Shown here: positions 20,013 through 24,757 of the stretch, in pieces
Position numbering within the stretch: the stretch's first letter is position 1
Layout of the letters: the number at the start of each line of letters is the position of its first letter
Source: a virus
Lineage: Duplodnaviria; Caudoviricetes
Direction: 5' to 3' (one strand)
DNA length: 24,757 bases
Virus record (IMG/VR): IMGVR_UViG_3300025838_000129
Coordinates: 1-24,757 of that record
Notes under the pieces: generated by a model
Database searches by the model: none
What the model was told of the DNA's origin: nothing
The model's input: the letters and a program-made list of their open reading frames with translations, nothing else
Program-made: the position numbers and the translations under genes

Positions 20013-21032
20013 CTAAAAAAAGTATTTATTCCAGATTTTTTTCGTATTATTTGTATACATCTTCAATTTATATTGATTTAGTTTTGCATTAATTTGCGGG
20101 AAATAATATGTCCTCAACAATGTATCACTAATATCTTTACTGTCTGTCGGATCAGCATTAAACAATTCGGTTGACCATGGAATTTCTTTACTTCCAACCA
20201 ACGGCACACCTTGACTGGTCAAATCTGCACCAACAATATTAAATGTTTCAGAGAAGTTACATTGCATACCAATATCCATAGATGCACAAAGTTTTAAGAA
20301 TTCTTCTCTCGGTGTCCATTGATGATTTATCAATTGATATTTTTCAAAAGGAAGTTGTTGAAATAAACCTCGTAGATTATTTTTAACTGAATCGCCTTTC
20401 ATTTCAATACGACCAGCATTAACATGAAATCTTAATTTTTTACCAATTCTGTCAGCAAAATCCATAGCACCAAAGACTTGAACTAAGTGATTTTTCAATG
20501 GACGGATTGCACCAAAACAGGCAACATCAATCGTATCTTTGTTTTTATCAAATGGTTTATGTACAAAATTTTGAGGATAATAATTTGGTAAATAAATTGT
20601 TTTTTCTTTACCAATATAAAATTCAATTTCTCTCAACATTCTTGGCGCATTACAAGCAATAATAATATTCTTGAATCGTGCATATTCAGCAATCCAATCC
20701 ATCGCCATTCCTTCTCCTGCCATAAAAGGCATTTCGGAATGTAGGCGAATAATCCATTTTACATTTGGATGTAATTTTTGAAGAATTGCAAATTTGGTAG
20801 GAACAACCCATAATGCTTCGATGATTACATGGGTTGGTTTATATTGATATACTTCTCGGTCAATTGAATTATTGTCGGGAACAACAACCATTTTTGATTC
20901 GAATCCGGAATCAATCATCATGTCGTTCATAAATTTGGCTGAATTATATAAGCCTGTGCTTAGGCCAATATTTGAATGTAAAGTAGCGCTATAATCTTCT
21001 CGGCGTTTCAGTATGAATAATAGTTTGGACAT
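20013..21032 (-). CDS. GT-B (GT4-like) glycosyltransferase
   Basis: CFGAIRPLKN and QCNFSETFNIVGAD...GVPLVGS. Confidence 0.8.
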   Translation of the reverse strand: MSKLLFILKRREDYSATLHSNIGLSTGLYNSAKFMNDMMIDSGFESKMVVVPDNNSIDREVYQYKPTHVIIEALWVVPTKFAILQKLHPNVKWIIRLHSEMPFMAGEGMAMDWIAEYARFKNIIIACNAPRMLREIEFYIGKEKTIYLPNYYPQNFVHKPFDKNKDTIDVACFGAIRPLKNHLVQVFGAMDFADRIGKKLRFHVNAGRIEMKGDSVKNNLRGLFQQLPFEKYQLINHQWTPREEFLKLCASMDIGMQCNFSETFNIVGADLTSQGVPLVGSKEIPWSTELFNADPTDSKDISDTLLRTYYFPQINAKLNQYKLKMYTNNTKKIWNKYFF

Positions 21033-21061
21033 GATGATATCAAATTATGGGATTAAAATTT

Positions 21062-21069
21062 TATTTATA
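21062..21069 (-). promoter_or_regulatory. T4-type late promoter TATAAATA
   Basis: Exact match, 30 nt upstream of the ATG at 21032. Confidence 0.8.
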
Positions 21070-21100
21070 CAATCCTAATGTGACAAAAAAATTACAAAAC

Positions 21101-21241
21101 TTAACGACCTCGGCCGGCTTTCCTCATTACAGTTGGCTTAGGAACAAATTTTGGTTTGTTAATTTTAGGAGCAGGTCCTACTTGTTTAAGTTGACGAACT
21201 TTTTGTAATTGTTCTTCACGAAATTTTTTATCTTCCGACAT
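21101..21241 (-). CDS. Small basic protein (46 aa)
   Basis: AAGGAG RBS; MSEDKKFREEQLQKVRQLKQVGPAPKINKPKFVPKPTVMRKAGRGR*. Confidence 0.7.
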   Translation of the reverse strand: MSEDKKFREEQLQKVRQLKQVGPAPKINKPKFVPKPTVMRKAGRGR

Positions 21242-21254
21242 GAAATCTCCTTAT

Positions 21255-21329
21255 TGGTTGCGGAGGATGGATTCGCACCACCGACATCCGGATTATGAGT
21301 CCGGCGCTCTTCTACTGAGCTACTCCGCG
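21255..21329 (-). tRNA. tRNA-Met(CAU), initiator-like with atypical elbow
   Basis: CGCGGAG acceptor with C1:A72 mismatch, CCGGA-CT-CAT-AA-TCCGG, T-loop TGCGAAT and encoded CCA. Confidence 0.85.
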
Positions 21330-21336
21330 CTAACTT

Positions 21337-21576
21337 TTAACCGTAAATGAAAACTACATCATCAATTGGAACAACATAGGTTTCATCTTCAACCTTTACT
21401 GCTTTATTCCAATTTAAAAGAACTTCATCACCAATTGCAACTTCATCAACCTTAGGTCCAAGAGCAATCACTCTTGCTCTATCTGGACCTTCAGCAGTTT
21501 TTAAAATTAATCCTGATGCTGTAGTTTTTTCTCCAGCAACTCTGGATACAATAATGTTGTCACGCAAGGGTTTCAT
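21337..21576 (-). CDS. groES: GroES-like co-chaperonin (79 aa)
   Basis: MKPLRDNIIV, KTTASGLIL, VIALGP and VAIGDEVL. Confidence 0.9.
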   Translation of the reverse strand: MKPLRDNIIVSRVAGEKTTASGLILKTAEGPDRARVIALGPKVDEVAIGDEVLLNWNKAVKVEDETYVVPIDDVVFIYG

Positions 21577-21604
21577 AATTTACCTTCTATTAAAATATAC
21601 AATT

Positions 21605-21612
21605 TATTTATA
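21605..21612 (-). promoter_or_regulatory. T4-type late promoter TATAAATA upstream of groES
   Basis: Exact match, 29 nt upstream of the ATG at 21576. Confidence 0.8.
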
Positions 21613-21614
21613 CT

Positions 21615-21835
21615 AGTCATTATTGAGAATACTGTTTGGTGTTTAAGAGCCGTGTAGTAGTTAGACGTTTAAGGTCATCTCTTTCGAGCCTTGCTACCGA
21701 TTCTCCTGATGTTGGCGTTACGAATCCTCTCAGCATAAGATTCTACCTCAATTAGTGGGTTGCGTTAATCAGGATGGTGATGTTCCCTAACAGTTGGGAT
21801 TGCTTAATCTTTCTCTCACATTCTCAATGATGACT
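21615..21835 (-). ncRNA. Candidate 221-nt structured ncRNA
   Basis: 16-bp closing stem with 1 mismatch (21615-21630 / 21820-21835). Internal helices TCCTGAT/ATCAGGA, GAATCTT/AGGATTC and CTC-GAAA-GAG. No convincing ORF. Confidence 0.55.
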
Positions 21836-21837
21836 GA

Positions 21838-21904
21838 TGTAGGCCGGTGGGGTATCTGACCAGTTTCTAGTCTGCCCATCCTCCGTTTACTTTCCTTGCC
21901 TACA
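21838..21904 (-). ncRNA. Candidate 67-nt extended hairpin RNA
   Basis: Nested pairing TGTAGGC/GCCTACA, CGG/CCG, TGGG/CCCA and GACTAG-AAA-CTGGTC; GC-rich relative to flanks. Confidence 0.45.
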
Positions 21905-21914
21905 ACAATCAAAC

Positions 21915-21988
21915 TGGAGCGGGATATCAGAATCGAACTGATAACGGAAGATTGGAAATCTACAGTTTTACCATTAAACTAATCCCGC
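21915..21988 (-). tRNA. tRNA-Gly(UCC)
   Basis: GCGGGAT acceptor, TT-TCC-AA anticodon loop, GTTCGATTC T-arm and TCCA end. Confidence 0.93.
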
Positions 21989-21995
21989 ATAAATC

Positions 21996-22065
21996 TGGAG
22001 CGGTGGCCTAGATTCGCACTAGGTGAGTAGATTGGACACCTACTCTGGTTCTATACCCCAACCGC
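21996..22065 (-). tRNA. Non-canonical 70-nt tRNA-Gly(UCC)-like RNA
   Basis: GCGGTTG/CCACCGC-TCCA acceptor, mini D-arm GGT-ATAGA-ACC, 7-bp anticodon stem with loop TGTCCAA, and T-arm CCTAG-TGCGAAT-CTAGG. Confidence 0.7.
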
Positions 22066-22069
22066 ATTA

Positions 22070-22207
22070 TTACTTTTCTTTTCTATCTTTTTGCTTTGCG
22101 TAAATTCTATCCATCAAATCTAACAATTCCTGTTTGGTTAACATTCTACCCCATTGAGGAACTGTATTTGCTTTTGGTGTTACAACTTCTTCTTTTTTCT
22201 TTTTCAT
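22070..22207 (-). CDS. Small charged protein (45 aa)
   Basis: ATGA overlap with the upstream stop; MKKKKEEVVTPKANTVPQWGRMLTKQELLDLMDRIYAKQKDRKEK*. Confidence 0.6.
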   Translation of the reverse strand: MKKKKEEVVTPKANTVPQWGRMLTKQELLDLMDRIYAKQKDRKEK

Positions 22208-22419
22208 TCTGAAGCTACTGGCTCTGCATCCTTACCAAATTTTTGGGTCTGTAAACGTTTTGCAATAGCTTTCTTAATCTTAGGAATATGTTTCTTACGG
22301 GCACCATCTAACAGTTTTGATAATTGTTCGATGTTCAAAGGACCTAAACGGGTCTTGCCAGTTTTGGTTAACATTGGATTTGCCTTACGAGTTCTTTGAT
22401 TCGTACCTTTTGTTGCCAT
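22204..22419 (-). CDS. Small basic protein (71 aa)
   Basis: GAGGA RBS; K/R-rich. Confidence 0.75.
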   Translation of the reverse strand: MATKGTNQRTRKANPMLTKTGKTRLGPLNIEQLSKLLDGARKKHIPKIKKAIAKRLQTQKFGKDAEPVASE

Positions 22420-22444
22420 AATATAGTCCTCTAATCAATAAATT

Positions 22445-22514
22445 TGGAGCGGTGCCTTTGGTTTGCACAAAGTTTTTTAAGAGGGTATCCTAAACTGTTC
22501 TATCTACACACCGC
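22445..22514 (-). tRNA. Non-canonical 70-nt tRNA-Gly(ACC?)-like RNA
   Basis: GCGGTGT/GCACCGC-TCCA acceptor, degenerate D region containing ATAGAAC, TTTAGG-ATACCCT-CTTAAA anticodon arm, and T-arm CTTTG-TGCAAAC-CAAAG. Confidence 0.6.
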
Positions 22515-22517
22515 ATT

Positions 22518-22582
22518 GTCCTGCTTACCGGTTACAGGGACACCACTTTACTGGCGCCGGAAGTTTTGCTGTTTCCCAACAG
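22518..22582 (-). ncRNA. Structured GC-rich 5' leader, possible pseudoknot
   Basis: CTGTT-GGGA-AACAG hairpin, CGCCA/TGGTG hairpin, and CCGG/CCGG crossing CCTG/CAGG. Confidence 0.4.
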
Positions 22583-22590
22583 TAAATACT

Positions 22591-22619
22591 ATTATATACT
22601 TATGTATGTTAAATGTCAA
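22591..22619 (-). promoter_or_regulatory. Consensus sigma70 promoter
   Basis: TTGACA (22619-22614) - 17 nt - TATAAT (22596-22591). Confidence 0.85.
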
Positions 22620-22637
22620 TACATATTCTGGTATACT

Positions 22638-22713
22638 TGGTGCCCCCACCATGATTCGAACACGGGACATCCTCATTACAAGTGAGGTGCTCTACCAACT
22701 GAGCTATAAGGGC
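22638..22713 (-). tRNA. tRNA-Thr(UGU)
   Basis: CCTCA-CT-TGT-AA-TGAGG, canonical D and T loops, ACCA end. Confidence 0.95.
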
Positions 22714-22718
22714 AATTT

Positions 22719-22793
22719 TGGTGGGCCAAAATAGAATTGAACTATTACTCAACCGATTATGAGTCGGACGCTTTACCATTAAGCTATTGGCCC
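22719..22793 (-). tRNA. tRNA-Ile2(CAU, lysidine type) most likely; elongator Met not excluded
   Basis: CT-CAT-AA loop; GGGCCAA acceptor with G1-C72, C4-G69 and C5-G68 (TilS-type determinants); A73. Confidence 0.8.
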
Positions 22794-23212
22794 TTATTAT
22801 AATATCTTGCTAAATTTTCTTTACTCCAACGACCATTACCTCTATTTGCACCAGCAAAAGTTTCAGTTTGGCTATGGCAGTTAGGACAAATTAATCTTAA
22901 ATTATCAAGATTGTTATTGTATGGATCTCCATTAATATGGTCAACCTGTAATACGATTTCTTTTCCTAACCATTCATTTAAATTACAACATTCACAACGA
23001 TAACCTTTTATTTCTCCTAATAATCTCCTTATCATGGGCCTATTAGACAATTTTCCCTCTAACAATTTCACGAGGTTTTTTTCATCTGCTAGTTTTGACC
23101 TATGGTCACCTTGACATTGATTATTACAATATTTGTGATTGTAAGTATAACCTTTAAATGGTATATTATTACCACAACTTAAACAATGATATATCTTATT
23201 TTTCTTAGACAT
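22784..23212 (-). CDS. HNH endonuclease with N-terminal Zn-finger-like region
   Basis: CLSC..YCNNQC, RCECC and LQVDHINGDPYNNNLDNLRLICPNCHSQT. Confidence 0.92.
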   Translation of the reverse strand: MSKKNKIYHCLSCGNNIPFKGYTYNHKYCNNQCQGDHRSKLADEKNLVKLLEGKLSNRPMIRRLLGEIKGYRCECCNLNEWLGKEIVLQVDHINGDPYNNNLDNLRLICPNCHSQTETFAGANRGNGRWSKENLARYYNKGQ

Positions 23213-23251
23213 GGTTAAAGCACTCCTTTATTATATTTATGCTTTAACCAT
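23211..23251 (-). promoter_or_regulatory. 12-bp hairpin occluding the HNH start, with late-promoter variant CATAAATA
   Basis: ATGGTTAAAGCA / TGCTTTAACCAT perfect inverted repeat (23211-23222, 23240-23251); CATAAATA at 23241-23234. Confidence 0.7.
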
Positions 23252-23257
23252 TTTAAA

Positions 23258-23332
23258 TGGTCCGTCCAAGAGGAATCGAACCTCTATCAATTGCTTAGAA
23301 GGCAATTGCACTATCCGTTGTGCTATGGACAG
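23258..23332 (-). tRNA. tRNA-Arg(UCU)
   Basis: ATTGC-CT-TCT-AA-GCAAT, GGTTCGATTCC T-arm, ACCA end. Confidence 0.93.
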
Positions 23333-23466
23333 AATTATTATAGTGAAGTGTATTATGGTAACCTTGATTAGAGGTAATCTTTTACACCACTCCGTCAGAT
23401 TAGATTATATGGTTAATCAAGCCAATAACAAGTCTTGGGAACAATACACTTCACTATAATAATTCT
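23331..23466. repeat. 24-bp perfect inverted repeat enclosing 88 nt (candidate structured RNA)
   Basis: AGAATTATTATAGTGAAGTGTATT (23331-23354) and its reverse complement (23443-23466); internal CTTGATTA/TAATCAAG. Confidence 0.85.
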
Positions 23467-23584
23467 TTTTAGATTTCTCTAAACGCCTTATAGCTTTGTT
23501 ACTTTTTTTGTGACTCCCTGCTTTACGAAACAATGCCAATTTGACAAGGTAGTTTCGAGGTTGAGGAGTTTTTTTCTTCTTCAT
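23417..23584 (-). CDS. Small very basic protein (55 aa) reading into the 24-bp stem
   Basis: AGGAG RBS; MKKKKTPQPRNYLVKLALFRKAGSHKKSNKAIRRLEKSKKNYYSEVYCSQDLLLA*. Confidence 0.65.
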   Translation of the reverse strand: MKKKKTPQPRNYLVKLALFRKAGSHKKSNKAIRRLEKSKKNYYSEVYCSQDLLLA

Positions 23585-23593
23585 AATACTCTC

Positions 23594-24022
23594 CTAAGGT
23601 TTATTTTTACCACACCATGTGTCTGTTTGAGAATGACAATTTGGACATAATAATCTTAAATTATCTTTAAGATGGTCCGAACTATCTCCATTTTTATGGT
23701 CTAATTGCATTACAATTGGTTTGTTATTATGTTCAGTAATTCCACAACAAGAACATTTATTCTCAAAAACACCATCACGAATTAATCGTTTTCTCAATTT
23801 ATTAGTTTGATAATGTGGATGTAATCCTTCCAATATTTCATTAGTTGGAATTTTTAATCCATCTCCACCACCATTACTGAATTCTAAACCAAGCATTTTA
23901 CATTTTCTCCAAATGGTAATACTTGGTACTTTAAATTTTACCGCTAATTTACCTAAATGTTTTTCTTGATTATAAGCCTCAATTAATTCACTATCGGTAA
24001 AACTATTTTGCCTTTGTTTCAT
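23594..24022 (-). CDS. HNH endonuclease with N-terminal HTH-like region
   Basis: LAVKFKVPSITIWR (HTH-like), KCSCC and MQLDHKNGDSSDHLKDNLRLLCPNCHSQT; AAGGAG RBS. Confidence 0.92.
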   Translation of the reverse strand: MKQRQNSFTDSELIEAYNQEKHLGKLAVKFKVPSITIWRKCKMLGLEFSNGGGDGLKIPTNEILEGLHPHYQTNKLRKRLIRDGVFENKCSCCGITEHNNKPIVMQLDHKNGDSSDHLKDNLRLLCPNCHSQTDTWCGKNKP

Positions 24023-24034
24023 AATAATCTCCTT

Positions 24035-24048
24035 TACTTATATTTAGT
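24035..24048 (-). promoter_or_regulatory. Late-promoter variants (CTAAATA / TATAAGTA) upstream of the HNH gene
   Basis: - strand ACTAAATATAAGTA, inside an imperfect AATCT..TTACT / AGTAA..AGATT hairpin. Confidence 0.5.
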
Positions 24049-24066
24049 AATAGCAGATTTCAAATC

Positions 24067-24150
24067 TGGTGGGTCGTACTGGGATCGAACCAGTCGTGCC
24101 AGAAGCGGCGGGTTTACAGCCCGCTGAATCACCATTGATTCTTCCGACCC
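24067..24150 (-). tRNA. tRNA-Tyr(GUA)
   Basis: GCGGG-CT-GTA-AA-CCCGC, long variable arm, GGTTCGATCCC, ACCA; A at position 8 and G7:A66 mismatch. Confidence 0.9.
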
Positions 24151-24156
24151 AAAATT

Positions 24157-24231
24157 TGGTACTCGATAGCAGAGTTGAACTGCTCTTACATGGATGAAAA
24201 CCATGTGTCCTAACCGATAGACGAACCGAGT
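24157..24231 (-). tRNA. tRNA-Glu(UUC)
   Basis: CATGG-TT-TTC-AT-CCATG, GTC-TATCGGTTAG-GAC D-arm, ACCA end. Confidence 0.92.
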
Positions 24232-24239
24232 AAACGACC

Positions 24240-24268
24240 ATTATACTAGACAATGAATAGTTTGTCTA
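24240..24268 (-). promoter_or_regulatory. sigma70-like promoter for the tRNA-Glu/Tyr cluster, overlapped by a 10-bp inverted repeat
   Basis: TAGACA (24268-24263) - 17 nt - TATAAT (24245-24240); TACTAGACAA/TTGTCTAGTA. Confidence 0.75.
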
Positions 24269-24312
24269 GTAATACTTTTGGTATTGTTGTTTTGGTACAA
24301 CACTTTACAAAT

Positions 24313-24355
24313 ACAGTCTATAGGTTGTAAAATACAAATACAGGGCATAGACTGT
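24313..24355 (-). other. 9-bp hairpin 3' of tRNA-Trp (possible weak terminator or processing site)
   Basis: ACAGTCTAT/ATAGACTGT with a 25-nt loop, followed on the - strand by ATTTGT. Confidence 0.35.
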
Positions 24356-24362
24356 TAAAACT

Positions 24363-24436
24363 TGGCATCCCGCTACGGAATCGAACCGCAACTAAGGCGT
24401 TTGGAGTGCCTTGTGCTACCACTACACCAGCGAGAA
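24363..24436 (-). tRNA. tRNA-Trp(CCA)
   Basis: CT-CCA-AA loop, G73, GGTTCGATTCC, GCCA end; U1:U72 and A31:C39 mismatches. Confidence 0.9.
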
Positions 24437-24440
24437 TCGG

Positions 24441-24474
24441 AAAACAAAAAACCCAAGATGTTTAGTCTTGGGTT
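24441..24474 (-). terminator. Intrinsic terminator directly upstream of tRNA-Trp (attenuator)
   Basis: AACCCAAGA-CTAAACA-TCTTGGGTT followed by TTTTGTTTT; ends 4 nt before tRNA position 1. Confidence 0.85.
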
Positions 24475-24513
24475 CGTATAAACTTTGTTACTTAAAAATT
24501 TACAAACGAACCC
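24470..24513 (-). promoter_or_regulatory. Antiterminator hairpin mutually exclusive with the terminator
   Basis: GGGTTCGT (24513-24506) / ACGAACCC (24477-24470) plus GTAAATTTT/AAAGTTTAT; shares AACCC with the terminator 5' arm. Confidence 0.75.
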
Positions 24514-24571
24514 CACTACACCATGTTCCTGATGTATGATAATTGGAGATGTTTATTAAAATATTTTTCAT
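24500..24571 (-). CDS. Putative attenuator leader peptide (23 aa, single Trp)
   Basis: MKNILINISNYHTSGTWCSGVRL*; TGG at 24523-24521; the last codons overlap the antiterminator 5' arm. Confidence 0.65.
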   Translation of the reverse strand: MKNILINISNYHTSGTWCSGVRL

Positions 24572-24595
24572 GTTCTTTTATATAGGTTACTTTTT

Positions 24596-24757
24596 TTATT
24601 TCCAACCTAATTTTTTCGTTTCAATTTCCGCATTTGGATTAGAAATGCCTTCAAATACTTTCCACAACTTTTCTTTAGATGCAAATTTTGTAAATAATCC
24701 AGGTTCCATGCCATGTGCTTCTACTTCCCATGGCTGAACCCAATAATCAATATCATC
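24596..24757 (-). CDS. C-terminal part of a putative zincin-like metallopeptidase phage protein (5' part outside window)
   Basis: ...DDIDYWVQPWEVEAHGMEPGLF...KLGWK*; a Y-x3-PWE-x-EA motif typically follows HExxH in phage proteins. Confidence 0.6.
   Translation of the reverse strand, partial: DDIDYWVQPWEVEAHGMEPGLFTKFASKEKLWKVFEGISNPNAEIETKKLGWK

Follow-up and report, generated by a model that had tools for sequence, protein, structure and literature searches.

A predicted multivalent, tryptophan-anchored attenuator ahead of a phage tRNA cassette

The tRNA-Trp gene of a T4-like phage is preceded by a real and conserved element, which most likely puts classical attenuation to a new use. It was analysed in a window of 24,757 nucleotides that makes up the IMG/VR virus record IMGVR_UViG_3300025838_000129, and it is best explained as a multivalent, Trp-anchored, ribosome-mediated attenuator that controls a tRNA cassette, in this case consisting of tRNA-Trp alone, a reading to which we assign a probability of about 0.6. 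The reading draws on parts whose presence, conservation and co-occurrence are found in the sequence, and on helices and a switch point at UGG that are predicted by folding. If it holds, attenuation would be extended to phages and to tRNA genes as the regulated output.

The element and its genomic setting

The window covers part of the genome of a T4-like phage, with genes for a gp43-type DNA polymerase, UvsX, a DnaB-like helicase, GroES and HNH proteins, and these and its eight tRNA genes all lie on the - strand. The identity of UvsX to the nearest cultured T4-like phages is at most 60%. A blastn search of the region against 50,697 phage records returned no match to the leader, and of the four terminator-like hairpins in the DLP_6 tRNA region none resembled the leader element by eye. 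Of 22 listed public sequencing runs, eight DNA runs contained at least half of the sampled words of 21000-24757; these eight are freshwater or lake metagenomes, and no RNA run with the sequence was listed. Four DNA runs were compared with the region, and one of them, the independent run X2 (24218-24537), matches the stretch from ORF to terminator without differences, and the element is therefore not an assembly artefact.

Synteny is anchored by the 3' end of an upstream hypothetical gene (24596-24757, - strand), whose ortholog matches phrog_16532/phrog_10499, has an HExxH motif and is without assigned function. This gene ends 24 nt before the leader ATG, and its last codons contain the -35 box of the leader promoter. 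All parts of the promoter listed in the initial annotation are present: TTGGAA (24605-24600), a 17-nt spacer, TATAAA (24582-24577) and 5 nt to the ATG at 24571, with no Shine-Dalgarno (SD) sequence. The site (24577-24605, - strand) is sigma70-like and weak and was not listed by a consensus promoter scan. Transcription from it is predicted to begin at or close to the ATG, which would make the transcript leaderless. Likewise, the leader ORF (24571-24500, - strand) has the 23 codons ascribed to it (MKNILINISNYHTSGTWCSGVRL) and a single TGG at codon 17 (24523-24521), with UCA and CAU shortly before UGG. Searches of Rfam and NCBIfam gave no match to the leader.

The tRNA-Trp(CCA) gene (24363-24436, - strand) begins at 24436, 4 nt past the U tract of the terminator, as had been annotated. 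It encodes its CCA end and scores 45.3 bits, with mismatches U1-U72 and A31-C39 that could represent nuclease evasion or decay. The anticodon stem of tRNA-Trp varies among relatives.

A second promoter (TAGACA-17-TATAAT, 24268-24240, - strand), from which control specific to Trp had been deduced, does exist (11/12) ahead of tRNA-Glu(UUC) and tRNA-Tyr(GUA) (24067-24231, - strand), and it bounds the cassette that depends on the attenuator only. The deduction itself is not supported. No - strand terminator was found from tRNA-Trp to tRNA-Arg, and read-through thus need not stop at tRNA-Trp; it could add to the output of tRNA-Glu and tRNA-Tyr, which are expected to be served by their own promoter and possibly also from the tRNA-Trp side.

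Several further features of the tRNA island were recorded. A 10-pair inverted repeat (24244-24271) lies over the second promoter and reads as a terminator on the + strand; it could be an operator or an antisense terminator. Two HNH endonuclease genes (23594-24022 and 22784-23212) are found within the tRNA array, and the cassette is also split by HNH-like inserts in two homologous loci (L271 and L283). Two long non-coding, GC-richer stretches on the - strand, 21615-21910 after tRNA-Gly and 22440-22580 after a promoter at 22619-22591, have no Rfam match and are possible unrecognised RNAs. Small basic ORFs of 55 and 71 aa (23417-23584 and 22204-22419) are conserved in related tRNA islands and matched no Pfam or PHROG family.

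Predicted helices and the switch point

Folding predicts three helices (1:2, 2:3 and 3:4) that exclude one another, as a trpL-type attenuator requires. The annotated 17-bp antiterminator (2:3; 24470-24513, - strand) was recovered with arms 24513-24506 plus 24503-24495 and 24486-24470, a predicted energy of -15.8 kcal/mol and its first pair at the 8th nt after UGG. The terminator (3:4; 24441-24475, - strand) was recovered as well, with a stem of 10 pairs at 24475-24449 (-12.7 kcal/mol), a U tract to 24441 and the sequence GAACCC in common with the antiterminator; both sequence and folding indicate an intrinsic terminator ahead of the tRNA gene. Folding added a 1:2 protector helix that the earlier list of parts did not include, in which segment 1 (24544-24548, - strand) is predicted to pair with 24515-24511 when no ribosome is present, and which is longer in most homologs than in the window. 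At folding equilibrium the terminator probability without a ribosome was 0.85 for the window and 0.95 on average over the 21 leaders of the family described below. A small hairpin containing UGG (24517-24536, - strand, -6.7 kcal/mol) occurs in all homologs with varying partner bases and is possibly a pause site or part of the protector.

The predicted duplex between the leader and the terminator arm is stronger than in dinucleotide shuffles (-13.6 kcal/mol against -7.7 +/- 1.8, with 8/2000 as strong), and 2/200 shuffles switched as well as the window, that is, brought the terminator probability below 0.2.

A stalled ribosome was modelled by masking the RNA to 5-9 nt past the A-site codon, with equilibrium and not cotranscriptional folding. 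With 5-7 nt masked, the mean terminator probability over the 21 leaders was 0.10-0.27 for codons -14 to -7 and 0.78-1.0 from codon -6, and with 9 nt masked the jump moved onto UGG itself. For the window the model predicts antitermination whichever codon between about 7 and 17 the ribosome stalls at, and the last permissive codon in the A-site is UGG (W17; 24521-24523, - strand) at 5-7 nt masked and T16 at 8-9 nt. With 8-9 nt masked, a window stall at UGG gave a terminator probability of 0.89-0.97, and the role of UGG therefore hinges on 1-2 nt of ribosome footprint. According to PMC8861025, hairpins sit 11-13 nt from the P-site codon; in our own reading of that source, an 11-nt spacer would correspond to about 5 nt past the A-site codon if it is counted from the first base of the P-site codon.

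Conservation of the leader and co-occurrence with tRNA-Trp

Homologs were searched with a pattern that consisted of the antiterminator arm and excluded UGG, which gave 21 metagenome and 45 viral matches. Together with earlier loci these made up 42 distinct stretches, 21 of them with a terminator behind, including the window, which recurred as L267 and was counted once. The other 21 were dropped as chance matches with no terminator or tRNA behind, as judged by eye, and W at the leader position occurred in 0/21 of these unrelated sequences.

The 21 leaders of the family have 22-26 codons and differ in length by whole codons, and their other two reading frames contain stops in 21/21 and 16/21. 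The ATG follows a TATAAT-like box by 3-8 nt in the homologs (n=21), an SD is absent in 20/21, and in 5/21 homologs a TTGAC(A/T)-17-TATAAT promoter stands 6 nt before the ATG. UGG is found at codon -7, seven codons before the stop, in 21/21, with codons -5, -6 and -8 varying around it; it is the only UGG among mixed codons in every leader, and no run of cognate codons occurs. Leaders of a second family, located at the corresponding gene position, differ in both peptide and antiterminator. Its members were found without requiring UGG, which is nevertheless present in 13/13 distinct leaders, 6-7 nt before the antiterminator, and tRNA-Trp follows in 12/12 loci with downstream DNA. Around W, the two families have no conserved peptide sequence in common. 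The leader ORF, its UGG and a fixed spacing to the antiterminator are thus conserved, and none of the refuting conditions that the initial annotation set at the sequence level was encountered.

In an alignment of 20 sequences, two of the ten terminator pairs showed compensatory change (in 8 and 7 of the 20). The antiterminator had 91.9% of cells paired in 20 homologs and three pairs with two-sided change, in an alignment where covariation could not show in the 5' arm because this was fixed by the search pattern.

The upstream gene gave 80 loci, of which 44, full-length and at least 71% identical, were analysed; two were too short and the remaining 42 fell into 23 orthologous groups. Leader and tRNA-Trp occurred together in seven groups, leader only in none, tRNA-Trp only in two and neither in 14 (p=1.5e-4, among related phages), and the leader accordingly tracks tRNA-Trp. 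Behind the 21 family leaders tRNA-Trp was found in 15 loci and was absent in L277 and L282, and four loci end too early. Loci L025 and L038 were considered as counter-examples and rejected, since a family leader is present in them, 970 nt ahead of tRNA-Trp and separated from it by Ala, Ser and an inserted gene. Terminator and tRNA-Trp without a leader are found in L111 and the L090 group. In L111 the upstream gene itself was ruled out as a leader (-6.2 kcal/mol, no switch). In L090 (2963-4402) and L092 a 479-codon gene is inserted after the upstream gene, and its last codons pair with the terminator arm preceding tRNA-Trp in a hairpin of -17.3 kcal/mol. This full-length gene, for which NCBIfam holds no family above cut-off, may serve as leader.

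The upstream proteins of L266 and L276 are identical and their leaders differ, an indication that recombination exchanges leader and cassette. A third leader type was observed about 200 nt before tRNA-Trp in L009, L021, L026, L027, L040, L041 and L046. It consists of SD-led, C-rich and G-poor ORFs of 26-29 codons with a conserved A(Y/H)SW motif; no intrinsic terminator was found before tRNA-Trp, and this type is possibly a case of Rho-dependent attenuation. Shorter ORFs ending in YWR or YWRY were seen in L034 and L052.

Codons probably sensed by the leader

UGG is the sole invariant codon upstream of the antiterminator in both families. It stays constant where its partner bases in the small hairpin vary, it lies at the predicted switch point, and tRNA-Trp, the commonest member of the cassettes, tracks the leader. 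These observations would all be accounted for by the Trp-specific attenuator of the initial annotation, in which no stall other than that at UGG has an effect in vivo and the other cassette tRNAs are passengers, but we consider this unlikely in view of the wide range of permissive codons (about 7 to 17) and of the composition of the cassettes. tRNA-Trp is the first tRNA in 5/21 homologs, with Ser, Ala, His or Leu first in most others, and two family loci lack it altogether. The exact leader of the window precedes Ser(UGA)-His(GUG)-Trp in L276, and in run X10 a near-identical leader is followed by a 173-nt insert before tRNA-Trp.

The leader codons also match the other cassette tRNAs. In 20 distinct leaders, 156/180 of the codons at -16 to -8 (87%) have a tRNA of the group that reads them; the share was 44% for 7005 window codons, 47 +/- 4% for shuffles, and 46% and 57% when the other frames were read. 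Both the tRNA set behind the 87% and the cassettes were assigned by the analyst from the same loci. These positions contain no Lys, Asp, Val, Gln or Met. A matching leader residue was present for 23/25 of the non-Trp cassette tRNA types in 20 loci (permutation mean 12.0, 0/20000 as high), with L266 left out for having no downstream DNA and two His-like tRNAs assigned by hand, and this match loses significance when relatedness is taken into account. A tree of the upstream protein, with both traits available in 16 rows, yielded 1-4 independent pairs per amino acid, none of them in the wrong direction and none significant. Mismatches occur in L274, where no codons match the Leu, Leu and Arg tRNAs, and in L284, with CUA codons and tRNA-Leu(CAG).

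Leaders with their own cognate codons ahead of other tRNAs, the search for which the annotation had proposed, were found in one Trp-free case with Ser, His and Thr. This leader, L388 (- strand, before tRNA-Ser(CGA)), is unrelated to the window family, has 26 codons that include UCG, AGU, UCA, CAU, ACG and ACC, and gives a clean predicted switch. Behind it lie Ser(CGA), Ser(GCU), Ser(UGA), His, His, Thr(CGU) and Thr(GGU), which is difficult to reconcile with a sensor of Trp alone. In other unrelated phages, L225 has a Cys-Trp-Cys leader before Trp and Cys tRNAs, and the leader of L197 contains Asn, Pro, His, Gln and Trp with Pro, Asn, Gln, His and Trp tRNAs behind it; together with L388, these unrelated leaders give independent support to a multivalent sensor. 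The terminator-arm duplexes of L225, L197, L187 and L237 reach -12.8 to -19.0 kcal/mol, yet no switch was obtained in the model, and the UGG of L134 and L188 lies outside the permissive positions. Further unrelated combinations of leader and terminator before viral tRNA arrays were noted in L336, L197, L187, L225, L237, L119, L112-L114, L134 and L139, several of them with mixed codons. The element is not general: in leader-blind samples a terminator lay within 500 nt upstream in 10/79 viral tRNA-Trp loci (118 fetched; L225 was missed by the scan) and in 4/45 tRNA-His loci (115 fetched), and no leader with a run of His codons was seen. As a whole, the attenuator layout of the initial annotation gains support from conservation, spacing and co-occurrence, but its restriction to Trp could not be upheld.

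The width of the permissive codon range could also point to a general sensor of slow or uncoupled elongation, as in host shut-off or under ribosome-targeting toxins or antibiotics, with Trp kept for RNA structure or a nascent-peptide contact. UGG is base-paired in the small conserved hairpin and could thus be conserved for structural reasons, the hairpin formed by the end of the 479-codon gene in L090 and L092 would suit such a sensor, and uORF sensors of translation stress are described in 10.1101/682021. A general sensor would, however, not need a codon-tRNA match that is seen in one frame only, nor leaders whose codons -16 to -8 lack five amino acids, and the peptide differs around W between the two families. 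We therefore regard the general sensor as less likely still than one of Trp alone.

The terminator and the upstream gene

The terminator is retained without leader or tRNA-Trp in L075, L082 and L104. As it is also kept without a leader in L111, it probably ends the transcript of the upstream gene in addition. That it does nothing else, being a constitutive terminator in a recombining tRNA island with tRNA-Trp made by leak-through and the ORF incidental, is the least likely of the readings: its retention in these four loci (in L111 with tRNA-Trp directly behind), the weak promoter of the window and the promoter/stem-loop cassettes of T4-type phages (PMC2839356) are in agreement with it, but it leaves unexplained the conserved complementarity, the whole-codon length changes, the invariant UGG, the consensus promoters reading into the ORF in 5/21 homologs and the same layout in unrelated phages, and the PeSL stem-loop as presented in PMC2839356 ends transcription from upstream, whereas here the promoter fires into the terminator.

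Proposed mechanism and its implications

For the multivalent attenuator that we prefer, the promoter spacing suggests that the transcript would start at or near the AUG and be translated as a leaderless message. According to the folding model, a ribosome arrested anywhere between about codon 7 and codon 17 would mask segment 1, helix 2:3 would form and RNA polymerase would read through. A ribosome that moves past UGG is predicted to unzip the GGG end of segment 2, upon which the 3:4 terminator would form, and with no ribosome the 1:2 protector is expected to favour termination. The mechanism would require coupling to the host RNA polymerase. UGG would be the invariant last checkpoint of a sensor that is probably multivalent, as the codons before it (Ser UCA, His CAU, Thr ACA, Gly GGA, Tyr UAU and Asn AAU) would be read by tRNAs of the phage group. 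The unit under control would be a tRNA cassette of varying content (Ala, Ser, His, Leu, Pro, Trp), which in this genome contains tRNA-Trp alone, and the outcome would be a negative feedback in which a shortage of working tRNA makes the phage transcribe tRNA. The trigger might be amino-acid starvation, a general slowing or, as the initial annotation suggested, anticodon nucleases.

A wider proposal, to which we give slightly less than even odds, is that phages of unrelated lineages monitor the host tRNA pool codon by codon by means of leader-peptide attenuators. The leader would list the codons of the tRNAs behind it and change with the cassette, and replacement tRNAs would be made only on depletion, for example by host anticodon nucleases. 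If this is true, leader sequences would predict which tRNAs are destroyed by the defences of each host. Why phages carry tRNAs has been described as a question more than 50 years old (PMC10264068), and phage tRNAs are reported to offset tRNA-cleaving defences (PMC11464382, PMC11555353). A conditional switch before tRNA genes separates the explanations, as codon compensation calls for steady expression and replacement on demand for a sensor. With a length of about 135 nt, the element should work with no more than the RNA polymerase and ribosomes of the host, and it is therefore testable in a reporter without phage culture; it would in turn provide a compact reporter for tRNA-targeting defence.

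Relation to known systems

A full-text literature search returned no attenuator of phage or bacterial tRNA genes, within a scope outside which supplements and subscription journals could hold one. The classical attenuators, such as trpL of E. coli and the multivalent thrL and ilvL, combine a leader ORF with 1:2, 2:3 and 3:4 helices and have amino-acid biosynthesis as their output; trpL is also treated in PMC13096801. The element shares with them a short leader ORF, the three predicted helices, a codon just ahead of segment 2 and predicted termination when untranslated. It differs in having tRNA genes as output, in being phage-encoded, in its predicted leaderless start, in having one UGG among other putatively sensed codons and not a run, and in matching no Rfam leader family or NCBIfam entry. 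Since there is neither a cognate-codon run nor an output of biosynthesis, transport or synthetase genes, it was not filed as a member of the trpL family. The pheM-pheST attenuator of E. coli is chromosomal and controls a synthetase; ribosome-read feedback on the supply of charged tRNA would be common to both, but the output here is a tRNA gene.

T-box riboswitches, with their stem I, specifier loop and T-box bulge, bind tRNA directly and need no ORF, and would have in common with the element a choice between terminator and antiterminator that is set by tRNA status. In 20900-24757 Rfam gave 13 matches at E up to 1, none of them to a T-box or a leader family, and a literature precedent for a T-box ahead of tRNA genes was sought and not confirmed. 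In arrest peptides of the TnaC type, the nascent peptide arrests on free tryptophan and termination is Rho-dependent; the element has an intrinsic terminator, and its peptide is not conserved between families.

The PeSL cassettes of T4-type phages, whose stem-loop is joined to a strong promoter for the next gene, resemble the element in their promoter, their terminator stem-loop and their location in a fast-shuffling region, but the order here is promoter, ORF, terminator and tRNA, and the cassettes are described in PMC2839356 without leader ORF or antiterminator. Leaderless short ORFs also act as sensors in mycobacteria, where polycysteine sORF attenuators are reported as amino-acid sensors (10.1101/834739) and ribosomes are reported to stall on such leaderless ORFs after a toxin has cleaved the cognate tRNA (PMC13096801). 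As these sources describe them, the mycobacterial sORFs differ in their poly-Cys runs, in exerting control via access to the ribosome-binding site of protein genes and in having no tRNA output. The Anabaena trn operon is a mobile tRNA array induced by translational stress under the repressor TrcR (PMC8421152, PMC10272220), and the word 'attenuat' does not occur in PMC8421152. Its control, as described in these two sources, is exerted by a protein repressor at initiation and is not codon-specific, but it would share with the element a tRNA array that is turned on when translation is impaired.
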